From Bryobacterales bacterium (GTDB lineage Bacteria; Acidobacteriota; Terriglobia; Bryobacterales; UBA6623), in NCBI GenBank assembly GCA_028819575.1, contig JAPPLB010000016.1, positions 1,770 to 65,769 of the forward strand: a stretch of DNA of 64,000 nucleotides. The letters run 5' to 3'. Of this stretch, positions 1 through 64,000 are shown piece by piece. The notes beneath the pieces were generated by a model that saw only the letters and a list, made by a program, of their open reading frames with translations, did no database searches and was not told the origin of the DNA. Positions within the stretch are counted from its first letter, which is position 1. Each line of letters begins with the position of its first letter. The translations under genes were made by a program, and so were the position numbers.

Positions 1-110
1 CCGGCGGCGCATTCCGCGCCGCGCGCAACACGGCCATTAAGATTTTTCACGAAACACGAATCACAGCTTTTGTCGCCGTTCGGTTCGCCGTGGGTGCGCA
101 AGGGTGGCAC
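1..110 (-). repeat. Partial reverse-orientation copy of the dispersed palindromic MITE-like element, truncated by the window start
   Basis: Positions 43-70 (TTTTTCACGAAACACGAATCAC) are the reverse complement of the CGTGATTCGTGTTTCGTGAA heptamer tract in the copies at 56195 and 63014. Positions 70-110 align loosely to the reverse complement of the left arm and terminal repeat. Confidence 0.6.
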
Positions 111-403: not shown

Positions 404-1957
404 ATGTTGCATCCGACGACACGCCGTAGTTGGCTGAAGTCCGGCGCCGGGGCCGCTGCTCTTCTGGGCGCGGCGGGAGCGGAGCCCGCCGTGGCAGAGG
501 CCGCGGACGAACCGTCTCCCGAGGTCTACACGCGGATCGGCGTCAATCCGTTCATCAACTGCACGGCGACAATCACGCGCAACGGCGGCTCTCTTCTGCT
601 GCCCGAGGTCATCGAGGCCGTCGAGCATGCCTCGCACTATCACGTGCGGCTTGCTTCGCTGATCGAAGCGGCCAGCCAGAGGATCTCCGAGCTGCTGGAG
701 GTTCCCTGGGCGATCGTCTGCTCCGGCGCGGCGGCCGGATTGACCCACGCCACGGCCGCCTGCGTCGCCGGAGCCAACCCCGAGTGGCGTCAGAAACTGC
801 CGATGCTCGACGGCATGAGGAACGAGGTGATCATGCCGAAGTGGTCGCGGAATCAATACGACCACTCGATTCGGATGGTGGGCGTGCGCATTGTCGAGGT
901 GGAGACCGTGGCCCAGGCCCGCGACGCCCTCAGTCCGCACACCGCCATGGTGGCGCTGCTGGGCGACCGTTTCGGAAACGATCGCCCCGGCTTGAGGGAC
1001 TTGGCGCCGCTCGCGAAAGAGCGCGGCATCCCTGTTCTGGTCGATGCCGCGCCTGATTTTCCGGTTATCCCCAACCCCTATCTGAAGGACGGAGCGGACC
1101 TCGTCGTCTATAGCGGCGGCAAGATCCTGCGCGGACCGCAAAGCTCGGGCATCCTGCTCGGCCGCGAAGACCTCGTTCGGGCGGCCGGCGTCAACGCTGC
1201 TCCGAACGGTGGTTTCGGGCGGCCGATGAAAGTGAGCAAGGAGGAGATTGTCGGCCTCGTTACGGCGCTGGAAATCTGGGTGAAAGAGCGCGACATCCGG
1301 CGTGAGTATGAGGAGTGGGAAGGCTGGTACAGCCACATCAGCAACGAGGTTCGCCAGGTTGACGGCGTCGAGGCGCGCGTCCAGGGACCGACCCGTGGCG
1401 GCCCCTTCCCGACATTGCGGATCTCCTGGGATACCGGCAAGATCGGCCTCCGCTCTTCCGACGTGCATCGGCGGCTTCTGGATTCCGAGCCGCCGATCAT
1501 GACCTGGGACTATGGCGACTGGAACTTCCTTGTGATTCGTCCGGCGGCGCTCAAGCCCGGTGAGTACAAGATCATCGGGAAGACGGTCCGGTCGATTCTG
1601 GCGGCCGCTCCGAGCGGGGCCGCCCAACGCGCTCCGGAGAAGCCGGCAACCGATGTTTCGGGGCACTGGGATGTCGAGATCGAGTTCTTGCGGGGACGCG
1701 GGAAACACCAGTTGTTCCTCGAAGCGTCGGAGAAAGGCGTCGTCGGCACGCACATCGGTGCTCGCGCGAGGGGAGACCTGAAAGGGGCGGTCGAAAGCAA
1801 CAAGGTCCGTCTCGAAAGCGTCTTGCCGATGGAGGGTTCGCGGTTGCGCTATCGCTTCTCGGGAGTCGTGCAGGGCGGCGAAATGCAAGGGGACTTGGAT
1901 CTGGGTGAGTATCCGCCGGGGCGCTGGGTGGCGCGACGAAGGGAGGCAAGAGCATGA
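404..1957 (+). CDS. Tat-signal SelA/DgaE-like PLP-dependent enzyme with an extra C-terminal domain of about 110 aa
   Basis: The N-terminus TRRSWLKSGAGAAALLGAAG fits the twin-arginine consensus (S/T-R-R-x-F-L-K). DLVVYSGGKILRGPQSSGILLG resembles the SelA PLP-lysine block (FSGDKLLGGPQAGII). Confidence 0.8.
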   Translation: MLHPTTRRSWLKSGAGAAALLGAAGAEPAVAEAADEPSPEVYTRIGVNPFINCTATITRNGGSLLLPEVIEAVEHASHYHVRLASLIEAASQRISELLEVPWAIVCSGAAAGLTHATAACVAGANPEWRQKLPMLDGMRNEVIMPKWSRNQYDHSIRMVGVRIVEVETVAQARDALSPHTAMVALLGDRFGNDRPGLRDLAPLAKERGIPVLVDAAPDFPVIPNPYLKDGADLVVYSGGKILRGPQSSGILLGREDLVRAAGVNAAPNGGFGRPMKVSKEEIVGLVTALEIWVKERDIRREYEEWEGWYSHISNEVRQVDGVEARVQGPTRGGPFPTLRISWDTGKIGLRSSDVHRRLLDSEPPIMTWDYGDWNFLVIRPAALKPGEYKIIGKTVRSILAAAPSGAAQRAPEKPATDVSGHWDVEIEFLRGRGKHQLFLEASEKGVVGTHIGARARGDLKGAVESNKVRLESVLPMEGSRLRYRFSGVVQGGEMQGDLDLGEYPPGRWVARRREARA

Positions 1958-3507
1958 GCGAACAGACGACACGCCGCGGCTGGCTGCAAGCGAGTGGAGC
2001 AGCGAGTGCAGCGGCGCTTCTCAATAGCGCCGGGGCGGCGGCGGTTTCCGAGATCCACGAAGAGCCGCCGAAAGACGTCTACACGCGGCTCGGAGTCGAG
2101 CCCTTCATCAATTGCACGGCCACGGTGACGAGCAATGGCGGTTCGCGGACCTTGCCCGAGGTGATTCAGGCGATCCGCCACGCCTCGCACTACCACGTGA
2201 ATCTCGACGAGCTTCAGGAAGCCGCCGGGAAACGCATCGCGGAGTTGCTGCAGGTCGAGCACGCCATGGTCTCGTCCGGCGCGGCGGCCGCGCTCACGCA
2301 CGCAACGGCGGGCATCGTGGCCGGCACTGACCCGGAACGCATGCAGCAGCTTCCGGACATGACGGGCCTGAAGAACGAGGTCATCATGCCCAAGTCCTCG
2401 CGCAATGGTTACGACTACGCCGTGCGGATGGTCGGCGTGACCACCGTAGAGGTCAGGACGGCGGAGGAACTGAAGGCGGCGATCAACGACCGCACCGCGA
2501 TGGTCGCCATGCTCGGGGACCGTTTCAGCCCCAAGGTCGAGTTGCCCCTCGAGGAAGTTGCGCCGATTGCCAATAAGGCCGGTATCCCCGTCCTCGTCGA
2601 CTCGGCGGCGGATTTTCTGGTCTCCCCCAATCCCTACGTCGCCCAGGGAGCCGACCTCGTCGCCTACAGCGGCGGCAAGATCTCCCGGGGTCCCCAGGGA
2701 GGAGGATTGCTCGTTGGCAACGAAGAGTTGGTTCGCGCCGCGTTCGCGAACGCGGCCCATCACCATGCTTTCGGGCGGCCGATGAAGGTCAGCAAGGAGG
2801 AGATCATCGGCGTCATGACTGCGGTCGAGACGTTCTTCGGGCGCAGAGACCTGCAGCAGGAGTACCGCGAGTGGGAAGGCTGGTACAGGTACATCACCGA
2901 GCAGATCACGAAAGTGGATGGGGTTTCCACGTACGTAGCCGCACCCTCGCGCGGCGGTCCGTTCCCGGTCCTGATGGTGGAATGGGACCCCGCGAAGATC
3001 GGGTTGACGGCCGGCGAGGTCGGCGCGCTGCTGATGAACGGCGCGCCCCGCATCGCGACCCACGCTGCCGGCGGCGGAACCTCGTTCCGTCTGCGGCCGG
3101 TGGCCATGAAGCCTAACGAGTACCAGATGGTGGCCGAGCGGCTGCACTCGGTTTTTCGGAACGCCCCGAAGCCGAGGCCCGCGCCGGCTATGCGTACGCC
3201 CGTCGACGACATTGCGGGCCGCTGGCGCGTCCGTATGGATTTCGGCGTCGGAAGTGCCGAACACGAGCTCTTTCTCGAAGCCGACGGCAGCGAAGTGACG
3301 GGCGCCCACATCGGTACGATCGCGGAAGGAAGAGTTCGCGGAACCCTGGATGGCGACAAGGTGCGCTTGAGCAGCGCCTTGCCTTTCGAGAGCGTCACTC
3401 TCGGATATCGCTTTGAAGGCGCCCTCAGGGGAGACCGCATGGGAGGGTTGTTGAATCCGGGCGCGCTCCCGGTCGCTACCTGGGAGGCGCGGCGCCACAA
3501 GTATTGA
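1954..3507 (+). CDS. Tat-signal SelA/DgaE-like PLP-dependent enzyme, tandem paralog of 404..1957
   Basis: Same length (517 aa) and collinear with the upstream gene. It has TRRGWLQAS and DLVAYSGGKISRGPQGGGLLVG, and its start overlaps the upstream stop as ATGA. Confidence 0.8.
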   Translation: MSEQTTRRGWLQASGAASAAALLNSAGAAAVSEIHEEPPKDVYTRLGVEPFINCTATVTSNGGSRTLPEVIQAIRHASHYHVNLDELQEAAGKRIAELLQVEHAMVSSGAAAALTHATAGIVAGTDPERMQQLPDMTGLKNEVIMPKSSRNGYDYAVRMVGVTTVEVRTAEELKAAINDRTAMVAMLGDRFSPKVELPLEEVAPIANKAGIPVLVDSAADFLVSPNPYVAQGADLVAYSGGKISRGPQGGGLLVGNEELVRAAFANAAHHHAFGRPMKVSKEEIIGVMTAVETFFGRRDLQQEYREWEGWYRYITEQITKVDGVSTYVAAPSRGGPFPVLMVEWDPAKIGLTAGEVGALLMNGAPRIATHAAGGGTSFRLRPVAMKPNEYQMVAERLHSVFRNAPKPRPAPAMRTPVDDIAGRWRVRMDFGVGSAEHELFLEADGSEVTGAHIGTIAEGRVRGTLDGDKVRLSSALPFESVTLGYRFEGALRGDRMGGLLNPGALPVATWEARRHKY

Positions 3508-3530
3508 TTCGGTGCTTCAGCGCAACCGCG

Positions 3531-4919
3531 CTACTCGGCGATGCCGCCCTCGGTCATCTTGCGGGGGTCGAGCAGGCGGTTGAGGTCGGCGGCGGTGAGG
3601 TCCGTCTGCTCCAGTGCGACCTCCTTGAGCTTGCGGCCTTCGCGGTAGGCCTGCTTGGCGACCGCCGCGCCTTTCTCGTATCCGATCACGGGGTTGAGCG
3701 CGGTAACGAGGATCGGGTTCTTCTCGACCAGGTCGGCGATGCGCTCTTCGTTGACTTCGAAGCCCGCGATGGCCTTGTTGGCGAGCAGGCGTGACACGTT
3801 CCCGAGAAGACGCGCGCTTTCGAGGATGTTGTAGGCAATCACCGGAAGCATCACGTTCAACTGGAAACTGCCGGACTGCCCGGCGATCGTGATCGTGGCG
3901 TCGTTGCCGATGACCTGCGCGCAGACCATCGCGGCGGCTTCGGGAATGACCGGATTGACCTTGCCGGGCATGATGCTGCTTCCGGGCTGCAGCGAGGGCA
4001 GCGCGATGTCGGCGACCCCGGCCTGCGGTCCGCTGTTCATCCAGCGCAGGTCGTTCGCGATCTTCATGACGGCCACGGCGCAGGCTTTGATTTGGCCGCT
4101 CAGCTCGACGATCGCGTCCTGGCTTGCCAGGCTCATGAAGTAGTTGCGGCTGCTGAGAAACGGCAGGCCGGTGAGCGCGGCAAGGCGCTTGGCGACGCGC
4201 GGACCGAACTCGGGATGCGCGTTCACCCCGGTGCCGATCGCCGTGCCGCCCAGCGCCAGCGCCGAGACTCGCGGCAGCGAAGAGCGGATGCGGGCGGCGG
4301 ACTGATCCACCTGTGCGCTCCAGCCGCTCAGCTCTTGGCTGAGGCGAATCGGCAGGGCATCCATCAGGTGTGTGCGTCCGGTCTTGACAACCTCATCGAG
4401 TGTCTCCGCCTTGGCGTTGATCGTGTCCCGCAGGTGCTCCAGGCCGGGCAGCAGCGTTGCGGCCGATTCGAGATATGCACTGACGTGAATGGCGGTGGGG
4501 ATCACGTCGTTGCTGCTTTGACTCATGTTGACGTGGTCGTTCGGATGGACCTTGCTGCCCAGTTTTTCCGTCGCCAGCGTCGCAATGACCTCGTTGGCGT
4601 TCATGTTCGTGCTGGTGCCCGAACCGGTTTGGAAGATATCGAGAGGGAATTGGTCGTCGTGGCGGCCGTTGGCGACTTCGTTCGCGGCGTCTTCAATGGC
4701 CCGCGCCATGTCGGCGGGCATCGACCCCAGGTCGTGGTTCACCGCCGCCGCCGAACCCTTGACGAGCCCGAGCGCGCGGAGGAAGGTGCGGGGGAAACGC
4801 AGGCTGCTGACGGGGAAATTGTTGACGGCGCGCTGCGTTTGCGCCGAGTAGAGGGCGTCTGCCGGAACTTGCACTTCGCCCATGCTGTCTTTTTCGATGC
4901 GGTAGGTGATGTCGTCCAT
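3531..4919 (-). CDS. fumC: Class II fumarate hydratase (fumarase/aspartase family)
   Basis: GSSIMPGKVNP signature, FQTGSGTSTNMN, SQSSNDV and YSAQTQR all match the FumC pattern better than AspA. A few positions after the signature (PVIPE, QLNVM) look AspA-like. Confidence 0.8.
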   Translation of the reverse strand: MDDITYRIEKDSMGEVQVPADALYSAQTQRAVNNFPVSSLRFPRTFLRALGLVKGSAAAVNHDLGSMPADMARAIEDAANEVANGRHDDQFPLDIFQTGSGTSTNMNANEVIATLATEKLGSKVHPNDHVNMSQSSNDVIPTAIHVSAYLESAATLLPGLEHLRDTINAKAETLDEVVKTGRTHLMDALPIRLSQELSGWSAQVDQSAARIRSSLPRVSALALGGTAIGTGVNAHPEFGPRVAKRLAALTGLPFLSSRNYFMSLASQDAIVELSGQIKACAVAVMKIANDLRWMNSGPQAGVADIALPSLQPGSSIMPGKVNPVIPEAAAMVCAQVIGNDATITIAGQSGSFQLNVMLPVIAYNILESARLLGNVSRLLANKAIAGFEVNEERIADLVEKNPILVTALNPVIGYEKGAAVAKQAYREGRKLKEVALEQTDLTAADLNRLLDPRKMTEGGIAE

Positions 4920-5055
4920 AAGTTCTTATTATCGGGCTTCTCGGGTGCGATGCGATTTGGACGCGCAGCGACTCGATTTCAAGCACGCCGCCGCCCTCCC
5001 CGGCCTATTCCTCGGAAATTGTTGCCGGCAGCCTCTCCGTGCTAGATTGATCGCG

Positions 5056-5385: not shown

Positions 5386-5582
5386 CCTGCCGTTCTCATC
5401 ACCTGACGGTCGAAGCACGCGATAAAGACCGCCATCACTTCTTTGCGCATGCTTGCCGTGCTCGATGCAGGTTCAATTACACCTCCGTGCCCAGCGGCTC
5501 GCGCCTCGGCATGACGGACCTCTCACGCCTGCCTGCAGCCGGCAGGCGCTTCGCCTCCCCGCTTGGTAAAAAAGCGATAGAG
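5386..5582 (+). repeat. Decayed copy of the palindromic MITE-like element
   Basis: The left end CCTGCCGTTCTCATCACCTGACGGTCGAAGCACGCGATAAAGACCGCCAT aligns to the copy at 29859. The right end CTTCGCCTCCCCGCTTGGTAAAAAAGCGATAGA is a degenerate version of CTTCGCCTCGCCACGTGGTGAGAAATGCAGG. The copy fills the whole gap between two convergent genes. Confidence 0.7.
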
Positions 5583-6470: not shown

Positions 6471-9400
6471 ATGAACCATTCCCCCGGCAGGATGAGTTGC
6501 ATGGCGTCGATGGCGCTGCACGGCTCTGGGATTTTGTTTCTCCTGACATGTGTGCTGCTGTCGGAATCAGCTCAGGCCCAACGGATCGGTCCGCTGGTTC
6601 GGGACAACCAACAGCGGTCGAAGGCATTGTCGGCCGAGCGTGAGGAGGCGCTCCGGCCGCCCAGCCTGCAACTGAGCCTTCCGTCACCGGCCGAGGTTGC
6701 TCTCCCGCCGTTGGGTCCCGACGATCTTCAGCGTTTGCAGCCGCAACGCGGCCGGCCTCCCGTCATCGGCGTCCACCGCCGCTTGCCGCAGGGGGCGCTC
6801 AAGCTGAGCCTCTCCGCAGGAGGCGTCAAGTCGACCGCCGAGGGAGCGTGGCAGTCGACCGGGGACGGACGCCTCTGGCGCCTGAAGTTGACCTCTCCCA
6901 GCGCCCGCGCCATGCGCGTTCACTTTCGGGACTTCGCCATCGGGTCGGGCCGTCTCTGGCTCCATTCCGAGGACGGGCAGGCCGTCGGACCCTATGCCGG
7001 CTCGGGCCGGTACGGCGACGGAGACTTCTGGAGCGGCGTCGTCTTCGGCGACAGCCTGACGATCGAGTACCTTCCCGATCCGGCGGCGGGAGAGGCCGTA
7101 CCGTTCCAGATCGTGGCCATCAGCCATATCTGGGGAGATGTTTTGAAAGACGGCGCGGAGGACGGCGGCCAATGGCCGAAGGCGGCCCGGGAGGGCTCGG
7201 ACCGACCGGGAGGGTCCAAGCTGGTGCCCGGCCCCATCGGCCTTGCGGTGGGAACGCCGTCGAGGAAGGCGCGGCTGACAAAGTCGACAATGGCGGCAAT
7301 CCAGTCGGTCAAGCGGTCTGCGTCCCTGCAACAGCCGCGCCCGAAGGCGGCAAGGCCGCTCACGTCCGGACGGCCTGTCACCTTCAGCCGGGGGCCGGTT
7401 GACTCCCCGACGCTGTTCCACGGGGATTTTTCATATCAGTTGGAAGTTCCCGATGACGCCACCCGAGTAACCTTCACGCTGGAATCCGATGCCGACGTGG
7501 CGCTGCTGGTCCGCTATGGCGAGGACAACGACATTCAGGACGGAATGCCTGTCTACGACTATGCCGCCGACGAGGTGTTCGAGGGCACCGAAGAGATTGA
7601 AATTGACCCCCAATCCGACCCGCCGCTTCAAGCCGGAACCTACTTCGTATCGGTAGGGGTCCTTGCTACGGGCGTCGAGGTCAACTGCACGCTCACGGCG
7701 GAAGTGGAACGCGAAGGAGGGACTCCGCCGCCGCCAAGCGGCCGCGCGCTCACACCCGGGCAGCCTGTCAGCTTCCAACGGGGGCCGGTCGACAACTCGA
7801 CGCTCTTCGTGGGGCCTAACTCTTTTCTGTTGGAAGTTCCCGAGGATGCCACCAGCGTAACCTTCACTCTGGAATCCGATGCCGACGTGGAGTTGTTGGT
7901 GCGATTTGGAGAGGACAACGACGTTGAGGACGGGAGGCTTGCCACGGACCACCGGCACCGGAACCGCACGGGCAATGAACGGATTGTCATTACTTCCCAA
8001 TCCGACCCGCCGCTTCGAGCCGGCACCTACTTCGTATCGATAGCAGTCTATGCTACGGGCGTCGTCGTCAATTGTACGCTCACGGCGGAAGTGGAACGCG
8101 AGGCTCCACCGCCGATCAGCGGCGGCACTCTCACACCCGGACAGCCCGCCGACTTCCGCCTGGGGCCGGTTGACTCCCCGACGCTCTTCACCGGGGGCCA
8201 CTCGTTCCGGTTCGAGGCTCCCGAGAACGCCACCCGCATCACCTTCACGCTGGAATCCGTCGATCCCGATGTCGATGTGGATCTCTATGTCCGTTTCGGT
8301 GAGGACAACACCGTCCAGGATGGGAAACCGGTCTCTGACCACTTCTCCAGGGGCTTCACCGGCAATGAACGGATCGGCATCACCCGCCGCTCTGACCCGC
8401 CGCTTCAAGCCGGCACCTACTTCTTATCGATATTGGTCTTTGATGAGGGCGTCGTCGCCGAGGGCACGCTCACGGCGACGGTCGAGACGGACGCCGAGGA
8501 CTGTCACCTTGACGCGACTTGCTACCCCGAATGGTCGAGTTCCTCAACGGGAGTCGCACTGATTGTCATTGAGTCGAATGGGAGCAGTTCCGCCTGCTCG
8601 GGCACGCTGCTGAACAACCGCCGGCAGGACAGCACGCCCTACTTTCTCACCGCCGCCCACTGCGTGCAAACCGATCAGGAAGCGCGGAGCGTGATCGCCT
8701 TCTGGTCATACCAGACACGAACCTGCAACGGAGACCATCCGGATTTGCGGAGCGTCCCGCGGACCGAGGGAGCGGGCCTGCTCTCGGTCTTGGGCGGCGC
8801 AGGTTATCCCGAGGGTGATATCACGCTGCTGCAACTCGAAGGCGATTTGCCGGACGGCACCGTGTTCCAGGGATGGGACGCGGCCCCCCAACCCGTCGAC
8901 TCCCAGGTCACCGGCATTCATCATCCCGCGAGCGCTGATTGGGGCCGATTCAAGCGGATTTCCTTCGGGCAGATCATTTCCGAATCGGCCTATGGAACTT
9001 CCGACGATACCTACTTCAACGTCTCCTACCCCGTGGGACAAGGCTACACGGAGCCGGGCTCTTCCGGGTCCGCCGTCTTCAGCAACTCTGAAACCGTGGT
9101 AGGGGCGCTGAGCGGCGGAGACATTGTCGGGTATGCCTGCCCGACCGAGCCCGTTGTTGACTACTTCACGCACTTTTCGGCTCTTTATCCCCATATCCGG
9201 CCCTTCATCGACAGCACCTTGCCGGAGATCAGCGGCGGCGCGCTCGCGCCCAGGCAGCCCGCCACCTTCCGCCTGGGACCGGTCGACTCCCCGATGCTGT
9301 TCTCCGGAGATTCTTCCTTCCAGGTTGAGGTTCCCGAGGGCGCCTCTCGCGTAACCTTCACGCTGGAATCCGTCGATCCTGATGTCAACGTGGATTTGTA

Positions 9401-10985: not shown

Positions 10986-11316
10986 ATGCGCCCTGCGGCA
11001 AACGAAGCTGCGTTCAACGATCTCTTCGTTGCCAAACGTGTGCGGTCAGACAGCCCCAACATTGATTTCATCAGTCGGGGACGATTCAAGGAAACGAAGG
11101 AGCAGAGGCCGACCAGGGAAACTATATCCATCGCAACACGGGTCCGAATACCGGAACTCTCACTTTGAACCAAGACGAAGGCGCTCGTTGCACGTTTCGA
11201 TTGACGTTCACAACGGCGACTTCGGGCAGGCTAGATGGAGAAAGGCCGTGATTCGTATCCCGATCGTGCCGCCGGTTTTGATGTGAGGGGAAAGTCCCCG
11301 CAGTGCTGCCGCCCGC

Positions 11317-29776: not shown

Positions 29777-29858
29777 AGTGACTCCTTGAGAGAACGTCCG
29801 GCTCTAGTATAGGGCTGCCCGGTACATGGCGATGCGCAAAGGAGCAGGCTCGGTGCTA

Positions 29859-30036
29859 GCCTGTATTTCTCACCACCCGACGGTCGAAGCACGCGATACG
29901 ACCGCCATGACGTCGTTGCGCTTGCTTGCCGTGCTCAATGTACCGCCAAGTACACCTGCGCGCGCCAAGCGGCGTTCGCCTCGTCCTGACGGCCCTCTCA
30001 CGCACTTCGCCTCGCCACGTGATGAGAAAAACAGGC
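29859..30036 (+). repeat. Compact (178 bp) copy of the palindromic MITE-like element
   Basis: Terminal inverted repeats are GCCTGTATTTCTCACCAC ... GTGATGAGAAAAACAGGC. The arms are shared with the copies at 5386, 56195 and 63014. TA dinucleotides flank both ends. Confidence 0.85.
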
Positions 30037-30058
30037 TAGAATCCGACCGAGGCCGGCC

Positions 30059-31714
30059 ATGCCGAATTTACATTTCCGTCCATTCCACCGTGTGTACTTG
30101 TTGATCCTGTTTGCTTTTCTGCTCGGGTACTCACAGGTGCGCGACTCGTCGCTGCGTCCGGATTTTTCGGCGAAGCTGACGGTGGTCACGCGGCGAGCTG
30201 ATACCGGCGAGACGGTTCCGTCGCGGGTTTACCTGTTCAAGGGCAACCGGCCCTATCGGCTGAGCCCGGTGGACGCGATGCTGCCGCTTCGTGCTGATAC
30301 CTACTACCGCGAGCGGCTTTGGCGGCAGGACCGCGATTTGAAAGTGCTGGAAGTGACGGCTCGCGACGCATCGCACTTCATCCTGTTGGACGGCCGGGCC
30401 GCGTTCAACCTGCCGCGCTCCCGAACGGACCAGAACGAGAAGTACCGCCTGGAGGCCTATCACGGGATGTTTTTCGAGCCGGCGGAGATCGAGTTCACCT
30501 TGCAGGCCGAAGAGGAGAAAACCATCAGCGTCGACCTCAAGCCGATTGCGCCGGGCCGGCAAGACGAGTGGCTGGCTGCCGACGACCACATCCACTTGAT
30601 GCGTGCTCAGGAAGACGACGAGCTATTCCTCAAATGGCTGCAGGCGGAAGACTTGGCGGTCGGGAACTTCCTGGAGTTGCAGCGCCAGCAACACGCCGCG
30701 TTGCAATATGCCTTCGGGCGCAAGGGCGAGGCTCGCGAAACAGGGTTCTCGATCCGCTCCGGGCATGAGACGCGCAGCCGTTTTTACGGGCACACGCTTG
30801 TGCTCGGGCCTGAGCAGATGATACGGCCGCTCAGCATAGGGCATATCTACGCGAATTCGCCGGCAGCCTATCCGTTTCCTACGGTTTTCTTTCAGCAGGG
30901 GCGGGACAGCGGCGGCGTGGTCGGCTTCGCGCATTTCGACGGCGCCATGGCGAACTCGACGTTGATCATGAACCTGGCTCGGAAGACGATCGATTTCATT
31001 GAGTTGTTTCAGTTTGGGGTCTTGCACACGGATCGCTGGTATGAGTTGCTCAACGCGGGGTTCCGTGTCGTGGGGATCGCGGGGAGTGACTTCCCGGCCA
31101 GCCTGAGGAATGACTGGCCGCGCATCTTTCCTCTATTGGGTCCGGAGCGGGCGCTCGTGAAAGCGGAGCCGGGTGAGTCAGCGTATGACGCATGGGAGGA
31201 AGGGGTTCGCCAGGGGGCGGTGTTGGTTTCGAACGGTCCGTTGCTCGAATTTACGGTCAACGGCAAGTCGTCGGGAGCGACCGAGTCCTGGTCGGGAAGT
31301 TCGAAAGTCCTGAAGGGCGAGGCGAGAGTGGTGTTCCACCGACCGATTGAGAAGCTGGAGATCGTGGTGAACGGGCGTGTGGTCGCGACCCGAGGAGGCG
31401 ACACGAAAAAGACCGCGTTGCAGCTTCCGTTCGAGACCGAGGTGACGGAGAGTTCATGGATCGCGGCGCGGGCGAGCGCTCTGCACCGCGAAGGAGAGTA
31501 CGAGATTTGGGCGCACGCCAACCCGGCCTATTTTCTGAAGGATGATGCGCCGGTCTACGTGGAAGCGGATCGGGCGGCCGTGCGTGAGCGCTGGGAGAAG
31601 GAGGCCGAGTACTATCGCAACCCCTCGCTCGTGTTCGAGCAGGAAGAGCAGCGCCAGCATCTGCTCCGGATTGTGGAAGAGACGCGGGCGATACTGGCGA
31701 GGCCGGCCGACTGA
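30059..31714 (+). CDS. Secreted hypothetical protein, possibly a metal-dependent hydrolase (amidohydrolase/PHP/CehA-like)
   Basis: Signal-like N-terminus VYLLILFAFLLGYS. Possible metal ligand blocks are ADDHIHL, GFAHFDG and GIAGSDFP. The family assignment is tentative. Confidence 0.6.
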   Translation: MPNLHFRPFHRVYLLILFAFLLGYSQVRDSSLRPDFSAKLTVVTRRADTGETVPSRVYLFKGNRPYRLSPVDAMLPLRADTYYRERLWRQDRDLKVLEVTARDASHFILLDGRAAFNLPRSRTDQNEKYRLEAYHGMFFEPAEIEFTLQAEEEKTISVDLKPIAPGRQDEWLAADDHIHLMRAQEDDELFLKWLQAEDLAVGNFLELQRQQHAALQYAFGRKGEARETGFSIRSGHETRSRFYGHTLVLGPEQMIRPLSIGHIYANSPAAYPFPTVFFQQGRDSGGVVGFAHFDGAMANSTLIMNLARKTIDFIELFQFGVLHTDRWYELLNAGFRVVGIAGSDFPASLRNDWPRIFPLLGPERALVKAEPGESAYDAWEEGVRQGAVLVSNGPLLEFTVNGKSSGATESWSGSSKVLKGEARVVFHRPIEKLEIVVNGRVVATRGGDTKKTALQLPFETEVTESSWIAARASALHREGEYEIWAHANPAYFLKDDAPVYVEADRAAVRERWEKEAEYYRNPSLVFEQEEQRQHLLRIVEETRAILARPAD

Positions 31715-31726
31715 TGTTTCTTCGCT

Positions 31727-32131
31727 TCAGGCGACCTGGTTGCGGTGGTATTTCAGGATGCAGCGATTCTCGATGACTGTGAGACCCGCAGCGTAAGCGC
31801 GTCCCGCCGCGGCGTGATCATAGACACCCTCTTGCATCCAGACGCACTTCGCTCCCAACCGGATTGCCGAGTCGACAATCGCACCGACGTGCTCCGGTTT
31901 CCTGAAAATGTTGACAATGTCGATCTCTTCCGGCATGTCCTCCAAACGCCGATAGGCCTTCTCTCCGAGGGATGCCTCAATGTTCGGGTTTACGGGGATA
32001 ATGCGATAGCCCTGCTTCTGCATGTAGCTGCTGACGCCGTAGCTGGGACGCCAGGGCTTATCCGAGAGGCCCACGACCGCGATGGTCTTGGCGGCGGCGA
32101 GCACTTTGGCGATTTGATCGTCGTTGGTCAT
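31727..32131 (-). CDS. CoA-binding domain protein (YccU/YneT-like)
   Basis: IAVVGLSDKPWRPSYGVSSYMQKQGYRIIPVNP is the family hallmark. The start is set at the internal ATG (MTNDDQIAKVL). Confidence 0.8.
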   Translation of the reverse strand: MTNDDQIAKVLAAAKTIAVVGLSDKPWRPSYGVSSYMQKQGYRIIPVNPNIEASLGEKAYRRLEDMPEEIDIVNIFRKPEHVGAIVDSAIRLGAKCVWMQEGVYDHAAAGRAYAAGLTVIENRCILKYHRNQVA

Positions 32132-32159
32132 CTTTCTTGGCGAGGCTCCGTGAAGGTGG

Positions 32160-32882
32160 CTAGGGTTTGGGGTCGGCTGCGAGACGTTGCACTTCACGCT
32201 CGGTCAGGAGGCGGTGTTTGCCGACGGGCAGAGTTCCGAGGCCCAATGGGCCGATCTTGACTCTCTTGATTTTCCCTACCAGATAGCCGAAGCGCAGGAA
32301 CATGCGGCGGATTTGCTGATTGCGGCCTTCCGTGAGCACCACCTCGAACCATGGGTTTTCTCCTGAGCGGATACGCTTGATCCGAGCCGGTGCGGTGGAG
32401 CGGCCGTCCAGCCGAATGCCGTTCCGAAGCTTTTGCAGTTCCTCTTCGGAAGGGTTGCCTTTGATCTTCACACGGTAGGTCTTCGGGATCTTGTTTTTGG
32501 CCGATAAGACGTGATTCGCAAAGTCTCCGTCGTTGGTGAAAAGCAACAGGCCTTCGCTTGCGTAGTCGAGCCGGCCGATCGGATACACACGCGAGCGATA
32601 GCGTCCCAGCAACGACATCACCGTCGAGCGGCCGTTCGGGTCGGAGGTCGAACTGATATAGCCCCGCGGCTTGTTGAGCATCAAGTAGACTCTTGATCCG
32701 ATTGAAGAAGCGAGACGCTTGCCGTTGACTTTGATGGAATCCCGTTCGGGGTCGGCCTTCGTGCCGAGTGCCGTGACGACTTCACCGTTCACGACCACGC
32801 GCCCCAAGGTAATCAATTCCTCGGCCTTGCGGCGGGAAGTGACCCCGGCTCGAGCAATGATTTTTTGTAAACGCTGCTGCAC
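32160..32882 (-). CDS. Pseudouridine synthase, RsuA/RluB family, with an S4 domain
   Basis: RLQKIIARAGVTSRRKAEELI..GRV.VNG is the S4 domain and GRLDYASEGLLLFTNDG is the catalytic Asp block. A GTG start at 32882 is proposed so the gene does not overlap the upstream Rieske gene. Confidence 0.75.
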   Translation of the reverse strand: MQQRLQKIIARAGVTSRRKAEELITLGRVVVNGEVVTALGTKADPERDSIKVNGKRLASSIGSRVYLMLNKPRGYISSTSDPNGRSTVMSLLGRYRSRVYPIGRLDYASEGLLLFTNDGDFANHVLSAKNKIPKTYRVKIKGNPSEEELQKLRNGIRLDGRSTAPARIKRIRSGENPWFEVVLTEGRNQQIRRMFLRFGYLVGKIKRVKIGPLGLGTLPVGKHRLLTEREVQRLAADPKP

Positions 32883-32917
32883 GTCTCTCGGCTGAACGGC
32901 GAACGGAAACCGCAGGC

Positions 32918-34039
32918 CTAACTGCGCCAGCGGAGTGTGACCGGACCGTCCATGGGGTGCTTCATCGGCACTCCATCCCGCTTTGATTCGAGATAAGCCT
33001 TCTTCAACTGAAAGTACCACTTGGCGGGACGGTCGGCGTCGTCGATCAGCATCAGAGCCGGGTCATGTTTGAGTCCGATGGACTGTTTCTCCATGGTGCG
33101 CTGATCCTGACCGATGAATCTGTTGCCGAACCAGCGCAGGACCGGTGTGAGGAACGGGACCCACCGGAAGATGTTCCAGGCGGCGACGAAGTCGATGCGG
33201 CAGCGGTCATGGGTCTCGGGCGTCACCGTTGTCTGGCTCGAGAACCAGTAGTCGCCGCAGTGGATCTCTTCGCGGCGGATGTTCGGCAACTCGAACGAGA
33301 TCGTCGTCAGCGGCTTACCGTAAACGCCCAGGAGCTTGTATGGCGCGCTGTTGGACGACGGGGCGTGCGCCCGCATGCGAAAGCCGTTAGGAAGCGGTTC
33401 GAAGATCTTCTGTTTCTCGTGGATGCTACGGCGTCCCCGCCACCACCACGCTTGGTGCACGAATGGCCCGTGAGCCGGGTCCATCAGCCCGATAATACCG
33501 TGGTCGATGCTGCAAGGAAGGTGGGCAAACAGTTGCTCCCTGTTGTAGGTGTCGCTGAAGACCGGCAATCGGGGCGCCGGCTCCCGAGCGGACCGCGACC
33601 CCGGATGCGTCATGTATACCCAGACGTAGCCGTCATGCTCCTCGGACGGAAAGCTCTTCGCGCGGATACGTCCGACGTCGAGATCCTGGTCGGGCATGAG
33701 TGAAGGGATCTCATGGCAACGCCCGGTATGGCCGTCAAACTTCCAGCCGTGATACGAGCACTCGATCAACTCGCCGTCGAACCAGCCCTCGGTGAACGGC
33801 ATGCCGCGATGAGGACAACTGTCACGGACAACGAACACTCGCCCCTTCTTATCGCGGCCTGCTGCCAGAGGAACTCCCAGCAGCGTCGCGCCCTGAAGCT
33901 TGCCCGCTTTGACCTGACTGCTTCTCAGCGCCGGGTACCAGGAGTCGAGGCACCAGTCCGTGTCGGCGGGCTTGGTGGGGATGCTCCGAGATGCTTCCGG
34001 GACAGGTCCGTTCCGCCTCGTCTGAGCCTCCGGCCCCAT
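32918..34039 (-). CDS. Rieske [2Fe-2S] domain oxygenase (PaO/ring-hydroxylating-like)
   Basis: CPHRGMPF...CSYHGWKF is the Rieske motif. The start is set at the first ATG; the track ORF starts with TTG at 34084. Confidence 0.8.
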   Translation of the reverse strand: MGPEAQTRRNGPVPEASRSIPTKPADTDWCLDSWYPALRSSQVKAGKLQGATLLGVPLAAGRDKKGRVFVVRDSCPHRGMPFTEGWFDGELIECSYHGWKFDGHTGRCHEIPSLMPDQDLDVGRIRAKSFPSEEHDGYVWVYMTHPGSRSAREPAPRLPVFSDTYNREQLFAHLPCSIDHGIIGLMDPAHGPFVHQAWWWRGRRSIHEKQKIFEPLPNGFRMRAHAPSSNSAPYKLLGVYGKPLTTISFELPNIRREEIHCGDYWFSSQTTVTPETHDRCRIDFVAAWNIFRWVPFLTPVLRWFGNRFIGQDQRTMEKQSIGLKHDPALMLIDDADRPAKWYFQLKKAYLESKRDGVPMKHPMDGPVTLRWRS

Positions 34040-34248
34040 TTCAACCGGACTATAGCATAGGGTGGTAAGTGGCCTGGGGATCAAGCGGTCCCAAGTCTAC
34101 GTGCGGTCCTCTGGCCCGCCAACACGGAGTGCCGCGCAACGCCGCGTCTGCGCGGCATGCAGGGGGCAACATGTCGTCCACGCGCGGCGCCCAAGGACGT
34201 AACCGGGCATGGCGAAACCGAACCCGGGGCGATGCTTCCGGGGTCGTG

Positions 34249-36933
<2,685 letters not shown>

Positions 36934-56107: not shown

Positions 56108-56181
56108 TGGCCGGTCGTCCAATGGCAGGACACGGGCCTTTGGAGCCTGGAATGGAGGTTCGAGTCCTCCCCGGCCAGCCA
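56108..56181 (+). tRNA. tRNA-Gln (anticodon UUG), 74 nt with encoded CCA
   Basis: Manual cloverleaf: acceptor TGGCCGG/CCGGCCA, D-stem GTCC/GGAC, anticodon stem CGGGC/GCCTG, loop CTTTGGA, T-arm GGAGG-TTCGAGT-CCTCC, discriminator G. U1-A72 is typical of bacterial tRNA-Gln. Confidence 0.9.
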
Positions 56182-56194
56182 GATGCAAACGCCA

Positions 56195-56474
56195 GCCTGC
56201 ATTTCTCACCACCCGACGGCCAAAGCACGCGATAAAAGGCCGTGATTCGTGTTTCGTGTCTCGTGATTCGTGAAAACCATGGGCGTGAGCTGATTCGCTG
56301 CAAAGAAATGTCTGACGGCCTGTGAAGGGTAAAGGCCGTGTTTCGTGACCCGAGGGGTGAAGGAGGCGATTTGGCAAGTACGCCTGCGCGCACCTTTTTC
56401 CTCCGCCCGGCTTGCGCCTTGTCCTGGCGGCCCTCTCACGCACTTCGCCTCGCCACGTGGTGAGAGATGCAGGC
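56195..56474 (+). repeat. Expanded (280 bp) copy of the palindromic MITE-like element, 13 nt downstream of tRNA-Gln
   Basis: Terminal inverted repeats are GCCTGCATTTCTCACCAC ... GTGGTGAGAGATGCAGGC. It contains the heptamer tract (56241-56275) and a second partial AAAGGCCGTGTTTCGTGAC module. Confidence 0.9.
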
Positions 56475-57625: not shown

Positions 57626-59161
57626 TCAAGATAGCCGACCTCGCAACGAAACGACCAGACCGCCGCCGGCCGCAAGCCAGCAAAGCCACAGGAACCATTG
57701 GCCCCAACGAGTGAACACGGTCAGTTCCGTTCGGTAGTTGAAACGTGCAACCAGCACGTCCTGCTCGAACGACGGAAGCGATGCCGTAACCCGACCGATC
57801 GGGTCGATCACGGAAGTGACGCCGTCGTTTGTCGCCCGCAACAGCCAGCGTCCGTTCTCGAGTGCGCGCATGCGAGCGATCAGCAGATGGTGGTGGCGGG
57901 CGGCGCTGCCGCCGTACCAACTGTCGTTCGAGATGTTCACCAGCACCTCCGCCCCCTGGCGCACGAACTCGCGCACGCCGCGCAGGAACACGGATTCATA
58001 GCAAATGAACACGCCCACGCGATGCCCTCCGACCTCGGTCACAACGACGCGGCCGCCAGGGTGGAAGTTGCCGGCCTCGAGCGTGATCTTTTCAACGAAC
58101 AGTGAGAACGGCCACGGCACGAACTCCCCAAACGGAACGAGAAACATCTTGTCGTATTGCGAAACGACATCGCCTCTCTCGTTTACGATCAACGCGCTGT
58201 TCAGCGGCTGCTTGCCGTCCGCGCCTCCCCGCTCGACGGAATTGAAGATGATGGGAGCATCGACGCTCATCGCCAGTCTACGGAGAAAGCCGCGGATCGA
58301 CGCATCCATCGAGTAGTAGGCCGGCACCGGGTATTCGGGCCAAATAACCAGCGCCGGTGGAGTCGAATTCTTCTCCGCAGCGACGCCCGTGGAGAGATGC
58401 GCCATGCGCGCGAGGTGTTGCGCATGCCGCGCATGGTCCCATCCTCCCGATCGAAGCTCGTCCGGGAGGACGTTGGGCTGGACCAGACGGACGGTCTCTT
58501 GCGGCGCGGCAACGTCAGGAAGCGCGGGCAGCAAAGGCAGAAGCAGCAGGGGCGCCAACCAGCACGCCTCCCGCCGCAACCTCCGCAGGAACAGGACAGC
58601 GACCGCGGCATTCACCATCGCCAGCACGAACGACAGCCCGTAAATTCCGGTCAGAGGCGCCAGGCGAGGCAACAGCGGCATTTCGATGCCGGCGTTTCCC
58701 AACTGCAACCACGTGAACGCCAGGTACTGATGCAATCCTTCGAAAGAAACCCACAAAGCCGTTACAACGGGGATTGCCCATGACCGCTTCATCAACGGTC
58801 CCGCGGCGACCGAGAACACGGCCAGATACAGCCCCTTGTAAAGGAAAAACCCCATGAAGATGGCGCCGGCGCCCGGTGCTGAAAGGCCGGCGTAGCTGTG
58901 CATCACACCGTAGATCCAATAGCAGGCTCCACCCCAGTAGATCGAGCCCGCCAACCATCCCATGAGGAACCGCGCCCGCCACGCATCTTCGCGGGCGCAG
59001 GCGATGAGAAGAGGAGCAACCGCAACGGGAGCCAACCACGTGAAGCCGAATCGCGGAAAGACCAGAACCTGGAGCAGTCCGCTCAGCGCAGCGAGTGGGA
59101 AAGAATACGCTCGGGAAGAGCAGCACGGAGCAGGCCCGACCCTTCGAACGAGAGTTGTCAC
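57626..59161 (-). CDS. lnt: Apolipoprotein N-acyltransferase
   Basis: Multi-TM N-terminal half plus a C-terminal CN-hydrolase domain (VGVFICYESVF, NISNDSWYG). The GTG start overlaps the lipA stop (GTGA). Confidence 0.85.
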   Translation of the reverse strand: MTTLVRRVGPAPCCSSRAYSFPLAALSGLLQVLVFPRFGFTWLAPVAVAPLLIACAREDAWRARFLMGWLAGSIYWGGACYWIYGVMHSYAGLSAPGAGAIFMGFFLYKGLYLAVFSVAAGPLMKRSWAIPVVTALWVSFEGLHQYLAFTWLQLGNAGIEMPLLPRLAPLTGIYGLSFVLAMVNAAVAVLFLRRLRREACWLAPLLLLPLLPALPDVAAPQETVRLVQPNVLPDELRSGGWDHARHAQHLARMAHLSTGVAAEKNSTPPALVIWPEYPVPAYYSMDASIRGFLRRLAMSVDAPIIFNSVERGGADGKQPLNSALIVNERGDVVSQYDKMFLVPFGEFVPWPFSLFVEKITLEAGNFHPGGRVVVTEVGGHRVGVFICYESVFLRGVREFVRQGAEVLVNISNDSWYGGSAARHHHLLIARMRALENGRWLLRATNDGVTSVIDPIGRVTASLPSFEQDVLVARFNYRTELTVFTRWGQWFLWLCWLAAGGGLVVSLRGRLS

Positions 59162-60060
59162 GCCGTTGCCACGGCGCTCTCTGCGACTTGCTCGGCCATG
59201 TAGGAACTCCGCACCAGCGGTCCGCTGAAGACCGCCCGGAAGCCGATCGACTCGCCGTACTCGCGATAGGTTTCAAACACTTCCGGTCGAACAAACTCCT
59301 CGACCGGGAGACGCCGCCGCGCGGGCTGAAGGTATTGGCCGATCGTGACGACATCGGTGTCCGCCGCGCGCAGATCGTCAAGCAAACGGCGAACCTCGGC
59401 CTCGGTTTCACCCAGTCCGACCATCAAGCCCGACTTCGTCATCACCTGCGGCCGGCAGCGTTTTGCGAACGCCAGCACTTGCAGCGAGCGCTCATAGATC
59501 GCCTGCGGGCGCACCCGGCGGTAGAGCCTCGATACGGTTTCCATATTGTGGTTGAAGACATCCGGACCGGCGTCGAGAACCCGCGTCACGGCGTCCGTGT
59601 CGCCGAGGAAGTCGGGAGTCAGCACTTCAACCCGCGCTTCCGGCAGGAGCTTTTGCACGGCCCTCACGGTCTGCGCGAAGTGATCGCTGCCGCCATCGGG
59701 AAGCTCATCGCGGTTGACGCTCGTGACCACGACGTGGCGCAGTCCCATGCGATGAGCCATTTCGGCAACGAGCCACGGTTCATCCGGATCGAGAGCCTCA
59801 GGCGTTCCCTGGGGGACCGCGCAGAAACCGCACCGCCGCGAGCAGACGTTCCCCAGGATCATGAAGGTGGCGACCTTGCGGCTGAAGCACTCGTGAATGT
59901 TGGGGCAGCGCGCCGACTCGCAGACCGTGTGCAGGTTGCGCTCGCGGAACTCGATCTTGAGGTCGTGAAGAGCCCGATAGTGCGTCGTGCCGCTGCGCAC
60001 CCACTCCGGCAGGCGCGGGCGGGGCGTTCGTTGCGGCGAAGCGATTTGAATCAGGTCCAC
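59158..60060 (-). CDS. lipA: Lipoyl synthase
   Basis: CESARCPNIHECF and ATFMILGNVCSRRCGFC (radical SAM CxxxCxxC). The GTG at 60060 is proposed because the longer track ORF would overlap the upstream SPOR gene. Confidence 0.85.
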   Translation of the reverse strand: MDLIQIASPQRTPRPRLPEWVRSGTTHYRALHDLKIEFRERNLHTVCESARCPNIHECFSRKVATFMILGNVCSRRCGFCAVPQGTPEALDPDEPWLVAEMAHRMGLRHVVVTSVNRDELPDGGSDHFAQTVRAVQKLLPEARVEVLTPDFLGDTDAVTRVLDAGPDVFNHNMETVSRLYRRVRPQAIYERSLQVLAFAKRCRPQVMTKSGLMVGLGETEAEVRRLLDDLRAADTDVVTIGQYLQPARRRLPVEEFVRPEVFETYREYGESIGFRAVFSGPLVRSSYMAEQVAESAVATA

Positions 60061-60115
60061 GGGAATAACAGGAGCGGGCAGCGACTCCTTATTCTCCCAT
60101 GGCAGGAACTCCGCC

Positions 60116-60703
60116 TCAGGGACGCCGCAGAATGGTCTGCAACCCGTCGGCGCGCATTCTGTTCTGGGCGTCCTTGGCCTCGTTGACGCTCGCGAACGGG
60201 CCGACCACGACACGGTGCCAGCCATCCCCGCCCTTGTCATAGAGCGCGACGGGGTATTGCTTGTCTTTCAGCTTGCTGACCAGCAACTGGGCATCGGACC
60301 GTACCCGCAACGCCGCCACTTGAACATGAATGCCCCGAGCGATCTGAGCGCCCGTCGCTGCCGCAGGCGCGGCGGGGGCCGCGGCCTTCTCAGGCGGAGG
60401 GGCGGGCTTCGCCGCGGGCTCAGGCGGTTCCGACTTCACGGGCGCCGGCGGCGGCGATAGAACTTCTCGCGGCTTGGGCGCATCTTCGAGCAACGTGTCC
60501 GGGATGCGAACATCGGCCATTTCCGGTTCGGGCGCCGGGATGCTCGTGGCCGCGATCACTCGATCCTGCTGCCCGCGGCTGAAGCCGACCGTGTAGCCGA
60601 ACGAGAAAAAGACCGCAAACAGAACTACCACTACGAAGAACAAGCTCAGCAACTGCTTGTTCCCGAGAACCAGTTCAAACTCTTCGTCTTCACGGGAGGG
60701 CAT
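60116..60703 (-). CDS. SPOR domain-containing membrane protein
   Basis: N-terminal TM helix (LLSLFFVVVVLFAVFFSF), a Pro/Ala-rich linker and a C-terminal SPOR-like block IHVQVAALRVRSDAQLLVSKLKDKQYPVAL...WHRVVVGPFASVNEAKDAQ. Confidence 0.8.
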   Translation of the reverse strand: MPSREDEEFELVLGNKQLLSLFFVVVVLFAVFFSFGYTVGFSRGQQDRVIAATSIPAPEPEMADVRIPDTLLEDAPKPREVLSPPPAPVKSEPPEPAAKPAPPPEKAAAPAAPAAATGAQIARGIHVQVAALRVRSDAQLLVSKLKDKQYPVALYDKGGDGWHRVVVGPFASVNEAKDAQNRMRADGLQTILRRP

Positions 60704-60798
60704 ATGAACCCATTGTACCTAAAAACAATGGGATCCAAAGATGTTTTGAAATCGGCCTATGCCGACGTGCTCTGCGGCGGCCCCCCGCCATCTCCATC

Positions 60799-61572
60799 CT
60801 ACTTTGCGTCGTCTATCTGCTCGGCCCACTTCGCCAAGCCGCGGAACAGATCGATGGGCAACGGGAACACGACCGTAGTGTTTTTCTCCGTGCCGATTTC
60901 CGTCAGGGTCTGCAGGTAGCGCAGCGTCACCGACGTCGGCTGGCTCGACAGGGCGCGGGCGGCTTCGGTAAGTTTCGACGCCGCCTGCATCTCACCATCC
61001 GCGTGGATGACTTTCGCGCGCCGCTCGCGCTCGGCTTCGGCTTGCCGCGCGATGGCCCGGATCATCTGCTCGGGCAGATCGACATTCTTGACTTCGACGG
61101 CCTGGACCTTGATTCCCCAAGGCCCGGTGTGCTCGTCCAACGTGGCCTGGATCTGCGCATTCAACTTCTCTCGTTCGCTCAACAACTCGTCGAGGTCCGC
61201 TTCACCGAGCACGGAACGCAACCGCGTCTGAGCAAGCTGGGAGGTCGCGTGCACATAGTGCGACACTTCGACAATCGACTTCGCCGGGTCGATTACGCGG
61301 AAGAAGATCACCGCGCTGACTTTCACCGTGACGTTGTCGCGAGTAACGACGTCTTGGGGAGGAACGTCCAGCGTCTCCACCCGCAATGACACTCGGACAA
61401 TGCGATCGATCGGCGCGAAGACCAACACCAACCCCGGCCCCTTCGGCCGCGGCAACAAACGGCCCAGGCGAAAGATCACGCCTCGTTCATATTCGGGCAG
61501 GATCTTGATGCAGTTGATCAAGTACAGAACCACGATGAAGATGAAGACATAGCTCAAGTTGAAACCAAACAT
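60799..61572 (-). CDS. SPFH/band 7 (stomatin-like, slipin) protein
   Basis: [15 protein letters not shown]..., ...[18 protein letters not shown] and an EAERE coiled region. The ATG at 61572 with GGAGGAG 10 nt upstream is preferred over the GTG at 61599. Confidence 0.85.
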
Positions 61573-61635
61573 AACGTTTCTTCTCCTCCGCCGCGTCACG
61601 AGCGGCGATCCACGAAACTCTTCGCTGCTCCCGGG

Positions 61636-63013: not shown

Positions 63014-63215
63014 GCCTGCATTTCTCACCACCCGACGGTCGAAGCACACGATAAAAAGGCCGTGATTCGTGTTTCGTGACTCGTGATTCGTGAAAAACCT
63101 TAAAAACCATGTTGCTTGCGCCAAGCGGCTCGCGCCTTTTTCCTCCGCCCGGCTTGCGCCTAGTCCTGACGGCCCTCTCACCCACTTCGCCTCGCCACGT
63201 GGTGAGAAATGCAGG
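63014..63215 (+). repeat. 202-bp copy of the palindromic MITE-like element
   Basis: Terminal inverted repeats are GCCTGCATTTCTCACCAC ... GTGGTGAGAAATGCAGG. The heptamer tract lies at 63061-63093. The copy ends 3 nt before the ATG at 63219. Confidence 0.9.
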
Positions 63216-63218
63216 ATA

Positions 63219-63951: not shown

Positions 63952-63986
63952 GGCGTTACGCGCCCCGAAACTGATGGCGTAACGCC
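63952..63986 (+). other. 10-bp-stem hairpin GGCGTTACGC-n15-GCGTAACGCC
   Basis: Perfect inverted repeat read from the sequence, about 90 nt after the stop of 63219..63860. No T-tract follows, and the next repeat copy starts immediately after it. Confidence 0.3.
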
Positions 63987-63988
63987 TA

Positions 63989-64000
63989 GCCCGCATTTCT
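63989..64000 (+). repeat. Start of a further MITE-like element copy, truncated by the window end
   Basis: GCCCGCATTTCT matches the left terminal repeat GCCTGCATTTCT at 11 of 12 positions. Only 12 nt are visible. Confidence 0.4.

Follow-up and report, generated by a model that had tools for sequence, protein, structure and literature searches.

The question raised by this locus is what kind of element underlies a palindromic repeat that recurs between the genes of a 64-kb stretch of Bryobacterales DNA (64,000 nucleotides in all, referred to here as the window) and what, if it is mobile, would move it. A sequence-only reading had counted at least six copies. The repeats themselves are real, as BLAST of the copies against the window returns matches at 5386-5582 (decayed), 29859-30036, 56195-56474 and 63014-63216 together with an extra reverse interior match at 25-76, and the terminal 18-mer GCCTGCATTTCTCACCAC occurs six times, at both ends of three copies, against 0.06 occurrences expected from shuffles. 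The revised count is four full-length copies, the start of a fifth cut off where the window ends, a decayed remnant in reverse orientation and a fragment of 16 nt. The boundaries first given shift one base inward, to 29860-30035, 56196-56473 and 63015-63215, while BLAST bears out the copies. Palindromic repeat length in the window copies is 176-280 bp, and the features are located as follows.

1..110, minus strand: decayed copy truncated by the window start; the alignment shows a retained interior module of the GATTCGTG type and a left arm that has degraded
5386..5579, plus strand: decayed full-length copy with a type-A interior, found by BLAST
11242..11257, plus strand: 16-nt interior-module fragment AAGGCCGTGATTCGTA, matching the module at 15/16 positions
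29856..29859, no strand: left copy of the target-site duplication, CTAG, from flank comparison
29860..30035, plus strand: 176-bp copy with a type-A interior, the copy originally singled out
30036..30039, no strand: right copy of the target-site duplication, CTAG, from flank comparison
56196..56473, plus strand: 278-bp copy with an enlarged modular interior, flanked by the degenerated 4-mers CCAG and CTAC
60065..60068, no strand: empty target site ATAA, filled in the OZ242366.1 ortholog (L065 1299-1475)
63015..63215, plus strand: 201-bp copy with a GATTCGTG-repeat interior, common to OZ242366.1 (where it measures 303 bp)
63986..64000, plus strand: CTAG and the first 11 nt of another copy (CCCGCATTTCT), cut by the window end and without counterpart in the OZ242366.1 stretch

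By interior, the four full-length copies are of two types, type A (29860 and 5386, which share 81% identity over 138 bp) and a type with the GATTCGTG-repeat module (56196 and 63015). Two lesser items of the sequence-only reading also hold, in that the stretch at 1-110 aligns as a decayed, reversed copy and the fragment at 11238-11260 is a genuine interior-module match (5 matches against 0.06 expected). The neighbours of the window copies are housekeeping genes, including those for a tRNA, a release factor, lipoyl synthase and NfeD/SPFH proteins. The 5386 copy begins immediately 3' of the TGA stop of the upstream ORF and is flanked by convergent genes, and the 56196 copy has a tRNA gene (56108-56178) 17 nt to its 5' side and the release-factor stop codon 8 nt away. 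Several copies end only 3-25 nt from a start codon. The 63015 copy ends 3 nt ahead of an in-frame ATG at 63219, the 29860 copy ends 23 nt upstream of an ATG at 30059, and the OZ242366.1 copy at L065 1299-1475 lies about 4 nt upstream of a candidate lipoyl synthase GTG start read from the sequence. The outward-reading end GGTGAGAAATGCAGG is purine-rich and could provide a putative ribosome-binding site or promoter.

The family extends far beyond the window. A degenerate left-arm pattern was used to scan one genome per species, with the matches taken as 8-kb blocks (labelled with L-numbers), and this genome-wide scan, which had been proposed along with the repeat, yields many further copies: at least 175 sites in at least 97 blocks from at least 31 contigs, nearly all of them Bryobacterales MAGs, and at least 149 sites in at least 120 metagenome contigs. 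The loci listed comprise 60 with plus-strand matches, 36 with minus-strand matches and one with both in the genomes and 60 of each strand in the metagenomes, so that strand ratios among them do not form a random sample. The suggestion of hundreds of genomic copies is plausible, the numbers counted being at least 76 sites in 33 blocks of OZ242366.1 and at least 45 sites in 21 blocks of OZ241991.1, where copies are spread across entire chromosomes amid housekeeping genes.

The anatomy of the element was taken from 139 complete elements in the listed blocks and the window. Most are 176-202 bp long, with a mode of 177-178 bp, further classes near 193 and 202 bp and a range of 150-472 bp, and the whole element is a long imperfect palindrome. 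Each is bounded by 17-bp terminal inverted repeats (CCTGCATTTCTCACCAC...GTGGTGAGAAATGCAGG), which establishes the inverted repeats of 17-18 nt recognised at the outset, and consists of a left arm of about 40 bp and a right arm of about 65 bp, each conserved but not identical to one another, around a modular interior. Across 70 aligned copies the terminal repeat is conserved, and changes at columns 3/176 are paired. The median type-A copy deviates from the consensus of its type at 7 of 178 positions, and one copy matches that consensus exactly. None of the 139 complete elements lies within a called gene, so that the description of the element as intergenic and non-coding stands.

Several observations concern the sources of the copies and their derivatives. 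The names of several source MAGs suggest sponge or coral hosts, and many family matches come from JGI and other metagenome contigs; the carriers would be marine, sponge-associated Bryobacterales. Two short contigs that bear the repeat, L001 (JAPOWV010000036.1) and L072 (JAAXGO010000265.1), are binned as Gammaproteobacteria and Rhodothermales MAGs, respectively; all other genome matches listed are Bryobacterales, and the two are probably misbinned repeat-rich contigs rather than cases of horizontal spread. Two Logan contigs (L098 and L099, from SRR10996926 and SRR10996925) are identical to window 29992-36039 and begin within the 29860 copy; the repeat breaks short-read assemblies. Mini-palindromes of 36-47 bp, barely more than both terminal repeats, occur at L093 2679-2725, L083 ~3390-3430, L056 7408-7441 and L032 ~7090-7140, still flanked by 4-mers like those described below; they look like internal-deletion derivatives that resemble REP-like hairpins.

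The flanks show how the element inserts. Identical 4-mers flank 55 of 130 elements from the listed blocks and the window and none of 130 in an outward-shifted control, and among the identical pairs CTAG (28), CTAA (13), TTAA (6) and TTAG (2) are followed by one each of ATAA, ATAG, TCAG, CTGA, CTAC and CTAT. An intact identical duplication is thus kept at just 42% of copies. Where the duplication is non-palindromic it is direct in 21 cases and inverted in 4, flank positions 1 and 4 covary directly between the two sides (p = 6e-7 and 2e-8), and the aligned flanks show no conservation outside the 4 bp. The elements therefore insert at YTAR tetranucleotides, with a preference of CTAG over CTAA over TTAA, and duplicate those 4 bp directly. 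The TA that had been seen to follow the right end is present, but it is the middle of this 4-bp duplication and not a 2-bp TA duplication. Copies would accumulate in intergenic DNA, notably between convergent genes, because YTAR is presumably scarce outside it in a genome of 62% GC, and genic insertions would be purged; convergent gaps make up 37% of 109 element-bearing gaps and 21% of all 474 gaps (p = 1e-5).

Mobility is shown by comparison of filled and empty sites. Positions 3,000,001-3,008,000 of OZ242366.1 (L065) are orthologous to window 58771-63925 at about 96% identity, and the window has an empty site at 60065-60068 (GGGA-ATAA-CAGG) where OZ242366.1 is filled (GGGA-ATAA-[177 bp]-ATAA-CAGG). 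The duplication read from this comparison is 4 bp (minimally 3 bp) and includes bases beyond TA. The copy starting at 63990 is found in the window only and is a second lineage-specific copy, whereas the 63015 copy is present in both genomes with interiors that differ in length (201 bp against 303 bp). The element is therefore polymorphic between genomes that are about 96% identical, and the lineage-specific insertions together with the low divergence from the consensus indicate that the family has been active since the lineages of the window and OZ242366.1 split.

No transposase gene is present in the 64-kb window, as had been noted before, and the search for an autonomous partner with the same terminal repeats succeeds in related genomes, where the partner found is of the IS1380 and not of the expected IS630 type. 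At L001 357-2079, between two CTAG tetranucleotides, lies a 1723-bp element whose terminal repeats read CCCGCATTTCTCACCAG and CCCGGATATCTCACCAG. Its 487-aa transposase matches PF13701 at E = 2.7e-147 and NF033539 (transpos_IS1380) with 388 bits, the cutoff being 180. Homologues with 88-94% identity are found on Bryobacterales chromosomes, OZ241991.1 among them, and the source name of one is 'IS1380 family transposase [Bryobacterales bacterium]'. A single 5.63-Mb contig carries at least three identical 1723-bp copies, each between CTAG, and the CTAG duplication of the insertion sequence is seen at four independent sites. Its terminal repeat agrees with that of the short element at 15 of 17 positions, or by eye at 16 of 17 for the CCCGC variant of the latter, and OZ241991.1 carries both the insertion sequence and many copies of the short element.

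On this evidence the repeat is very probably a MITE (miniature inverted-repeat transposable element) family mobilised in trans by an IS1380-family DDE transposase. The terminal repeats, the supported duplications, the filled and empty site and the matching autonomous insertion sequence agree with the first proposal of a non-autonomous mobile element. The transposase of the 1723-bp insertion sequence, or of a close relative, would move the MITE, as the near-identical terminal repeats, the shared CTAG duplication and the multicopy presence of both in the same Bryobacterales clade suggest. It would bind the shared terminal repeats, cut the target with a 4-bp stagger and join the ends, and gap repair would then yield the 4-bp duplication. 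The 1723-bp insertion sequence is a likely mobiliser. Inward of the 17 bp, the MITE arms resemble the subterminal DNA of the insertion sequence not significantly more than shuffled sequence does (z of at most 1.2), which rules out the MITE as a simple internal deletion of it and means that another relative could be the true mobiliser. It also tells against the model that the insertion sequence is not seen in the sampled blocks of OZ242366.1, the closest genome, that the window has no transposase of its own and that just 42% of copies keep an identical duplication.

The two elements also occur in direct contact. At L001 117-2083 a right-arm remnant, a full MITE and the insertion sequence stand head to tail with a lone CTAG between them, and at L101 2763-4670 a MITE is followed head to tail by the insertion sequence with a single shared CTAG; all are co-oriented. 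At these junctions the duplication that flanks a resident copy has been reused as target. A MITE copy is itself the site of the insertion sequence in L102 and L103, with identical flanks (GGGGC-CTAG ... CTAG-TTC). A second, distant IS1380-family transposase gene, with 31% identity to the partner transposase, is found at L039 2693-3994.

The shape of the element raises other possibilities. Each copy forms one long imperfect hairpin, with z scores of -5.85 (the 29860 copy), -3.65 and -2.51, and over 70 aligned type-A copies 97.8% of the cells at predicted pairs are paired. Double-sided changes affect 7 pairs in 29 cells, against 4.5 in shuffles, and come mostly from a few sub-lineages, so that they represent few independent events; G-U mispairs show a weak excess over A-C mispairs on the plus strand (49 vs 32, p = 0.07). 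Such stable folds, compensatory pairs and slight G-U excess, together with the frequent abutment of copies on start and stop codons, would suit structured non-coding RNA genes or cis-regulatory RNAs (a terminator, insulator or sRNA scaffold) conserved for RNA function. This is nonetheless very unlikely, as any palindromic terminal-repeat element would fold in the same way, the orientation of the copies is independent of gene strand (23 vs 27 in tandem contexts; 232 vs 226 genes) and mobility is shown by the insertion polymorphism and the duplications. The Rfam 15 covariance models give no match at gathering or permissive thresholds other than to the neighbouring tRNA, and the comparison with Acido-1 and Acido-Lenti-1 that had been suggested, motifs which like the MITE are found in Acidobacteria, gives no match at any threshold. 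Real as the palindromic shape is, nothing about it demands an RNA function.

The same hairpin, with its high pairing and its double-sided changes, is also what would be seen in a REP/REPIN-like repeat spread by a single-strand enzyme of the HUH/RAYT or IS200/IS605 type that acts strand-specifically on the hairpin. The intergenic position and the enrichment between convergent genes fit such a repeat, and the local co-orientation of copies described below would follow naturally if the mechanism were strand-specific. To our knowledge, however, IS200/IS605 and RAYT systems make no target duplication, and here a 4-bp direct duplication of variable sequence is present, the terminal repeats match those of a DDE insertion sequence, no HUH gene was met in any locus in a non-exhaustive search and no two-replichore pattern of orientation is seen. 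The REP/BIME alternative that accompanied the first proposal thus goes unsupported, the 4-bp duplication and the DDE partner standing in its place, and a mechanism of this kind is highly improbable.

Dense co-oriented arrays with one copy in every intergenic gap would likewise be explained if the copies were recombination sites bounding gene cassettes, in the manner of integron attC, with its RYYYAAC and GTTRRRY core sites in arrays beside an integrase, or of another site-specific system. Three blocks (L007, L059 and L062) each hold five co-oriented copies in 8 kb, and in the two of them with ORFs listed (L007 and L062) copies separate single genes or gene pairs. Against this, copies are dispersed chromosome-wide among housekeeping genes, the variable, duplicated flanking 4-mers are transposition-like footprints, the ends (CCTGCA.../...TGCAGG) contain no GTTRRRY-type core by inspection and no integrase is seen in the ORF listing beside the arrays, which makes cassette sites scarcely credible. 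There is next to no chance that the family is an IS630/Tc1-mariner-type MITE duplicating TA, for although TA stands on both sides of most copies, this model is ruled out by the covariation of the bases outside TA between flanks (p = 6e-7 and 2e-8), by non-TA duplications such as TCAG/TCAG and CTGA/CTGA and by the 4-bp (minimally 3-bp) duplication at the empty site, and the matching insertion sequence, in place of the IS630/Tc1-like partner once proposed, encodes an IS1380-family transposase (PF13701, NF033539). Each of the IS630/TA, REP/RAYT, attC and Rfam alternatives fails a defining feature.

The nearest known counterparts are IS1380-family insertion sequences and, more broadly, the non-autonomous derivatives of DDE insertion sequences. 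Members of the IS1380 family, such as IS1380 and ISEcp1, are about 1.6-2.1 kb long with short terminal repeats and make 4-5 bp duplications (ISfinder). The partner passes the curated models of this family, measures 1723 bp, has terminal repeats that start with CC and makes a 4-bp duplication; it shares with the MITE a common terminal repeat and duplication, although only the 17-bp ends and no subterminal DNA are held in common. Judged by its sequence, the element shows every feature by which a MITE would be recognised (a non-coding length below 600 bp, terminal inverted repeats, a duplication of fixed length, many dispersed copies, insertion polymorphism and an autonomous element with matching ends), and its putative partner those by which the curated IS1380 models define a member. 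The Correia elements (NEMIS) of Neisseria and the RUP elements of Streptococcus pneumoniae are abundant intergenic terminal-repeat elements of 100-160 bp that form long hairpins and, like the MITE, lie near gene starts and ends and have length variants with modular interiors. They duplicate TA and are tied to other insertion sequence families, and they have no sequence similarity to the MITE. REP/BIME and REPIN-RAYT repeats are like the MITE palindromic, intergenic and of high copy number, but REPs are units of 20-40 nt moved by an HUH enzyme without target duplications, in contrast to the 17-bp terminal repeats, 4-bp duplication and DDE partner of the MITE. Neither an IS1380-associated MITE nor this family was found described in the open-access literature searched, and a text search of a 2024 review of prokaryotic MITEs (PMC10969869) gives neither 'IS1380' nor 'Acidobacter'.

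A further likeness to REPs lies in the elements that the MITE itself receives. REPs are known targets of IS110-family elements, for example IS621 in those of E. coli, and IS110-family elements are also found within MITE copies, at fixed positions and in two lineages (L065 6572-7738, L028 6395-7833, L093 4335-5773 and L100 ~1769-4951, with PF01548 and PF02371). They match NF033542, 'IS110 family RNA-guided transposase', at 195 bits. The first lineage is inserted after MITE position 18. The second, of 1439 bp, is inserted at the apical loop (position ~90) in two separate OZ242366.1 copies and is apparently also present in OZ241991.1, nested with an IS1380-family element. For two IS110-family elements the MITE thus seems to be a target present in many copies. 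Apart from this targeting and its co-orientation, the MITE is ordinary in kind.

The co-orientation of neighbouring copies is the feature that the IS1380-MITE model leaves unaccounted for. Among the genome matches listed, adjacent sites within an 8-kb block have the same orientation in 70 cases and the opposite orientation in 7 (p = 3.5e-14), and all seven discordant pairs involve a solo right-arm remnant. An independent metagenome set of at least 120 contigs gives 24 co-oriented pairs against 8, or about 10 against 1 for pairs of complete copies, and at four loci picked via the transposase every one of the seven MITE copies nearby points the same way as the insertion sequence. The window follows the same rule, as the two lineage-specific insertions near 60-64 kb have the direction of the older shared copy and the sole reversed copy is the decayed remnant at 1..110. 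Coherence of orientation holds below 8 kb, persists mostly up to about 30 kb and is gone by about 100 kb; in OZ241991.1 the orientation is plus at 4.52 Mb, minus at 4.63 Mb and plus again at 4.85 Mb. A DDE transposase would not be expected to give the terminal-repeat elements that it moves a common local orientation, and the co-orientation therefore counts against the model; we know of no description of it for Correia or RUP elements. We regard the effect as real.

A number of candidate causes were tried and rejected. Neither the strand of the flanking gene (23 vs 27 in tandem contexts) nor that of nearby genes (232 vs 226 genes) accounts for the orientation, and nor does block GC skew (p = 0.59) or, once the effect of gene strand is removed by regression, GC skew at third codon positions (GC3; coefficient 0.005 +/- 0.007). 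On the coding strand GC3 skew has a strongly negative value (-0.084 +/- 0.007 over 442 genes from the genome loci and the window). Residual GC3 skew per block is too gene-specific to report replication direction, and skew varies between adjacent blocks beyond sampling, which means that 8-kb GC skew carries no information on replication direction here. No KOPS-like skewed k-mers stand clearly above random block orientation. Runs of at least five G are more numerous on the strand in which the left arm of the element comes first (477 vs 365, block sign test p = 0.001), a motif chosen post hoc in the same data that shows a trend in the independent set (359 vs 299, p = 0.16). Local hopping from neighbouring donors is rejected, as neighbours are no more similar than distant copies. 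At loci with at least two copies within 8 kb, neighbours share a length class in 10 of 45 cases against 16.5 expected from the mix of the genome, a deficit that might be due to deletions removing direct repeats of high similarity. A two-replichore pattern is likewise rejected, since orientation flips many times along OZ241991.1 and OZ242366.1. A published survey reports no replication-related orientation bias for IS1380 elements, and from the same source a peptide of the IS1380 transposase binds the beta clamp (PMC3971601).

Replication-fork coupling in chromosomes that have been rearranged, a cue of domain scale during target capture, or selection might cause the co-orientation. A tentative proposal, which we hold to be possible but rather unlikely, is that a regional polarity cue acting over about 10-100 kb, distinct from gene strand or a simple replichore, sets the orientation of both the MITE and its IS1380 partner. 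Such a cue might consist in target capture templated by a resident copy or guided by supercoil domains or DNA tracking, or else in replication-fork coupling where the replication pattern of the chromosome is unconventional or heavily rearranged.

With this family, an abundant and recently active MITE and its likely IS1380-family driver join the mobile-element catalogue of the Bryobacterales, an Acidobacteriota group with few cultured members. The MITE fragments short-read assemblies and is a likely source of misbinned contigs, it lies within a few bases of the start and stop codons of housekeeping genes and may alter their expression, and it would offer a multicopy landing pad to two IS110-family (RNA-guided) elements. 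Its near-absolute local co-orientation is the sole feature that could teach something new on transposition or chromosome organisation, and if a regional polarity cue does set it, the element would serve as a natural reporter of polarity at domain scale along a bacterial chromosome.
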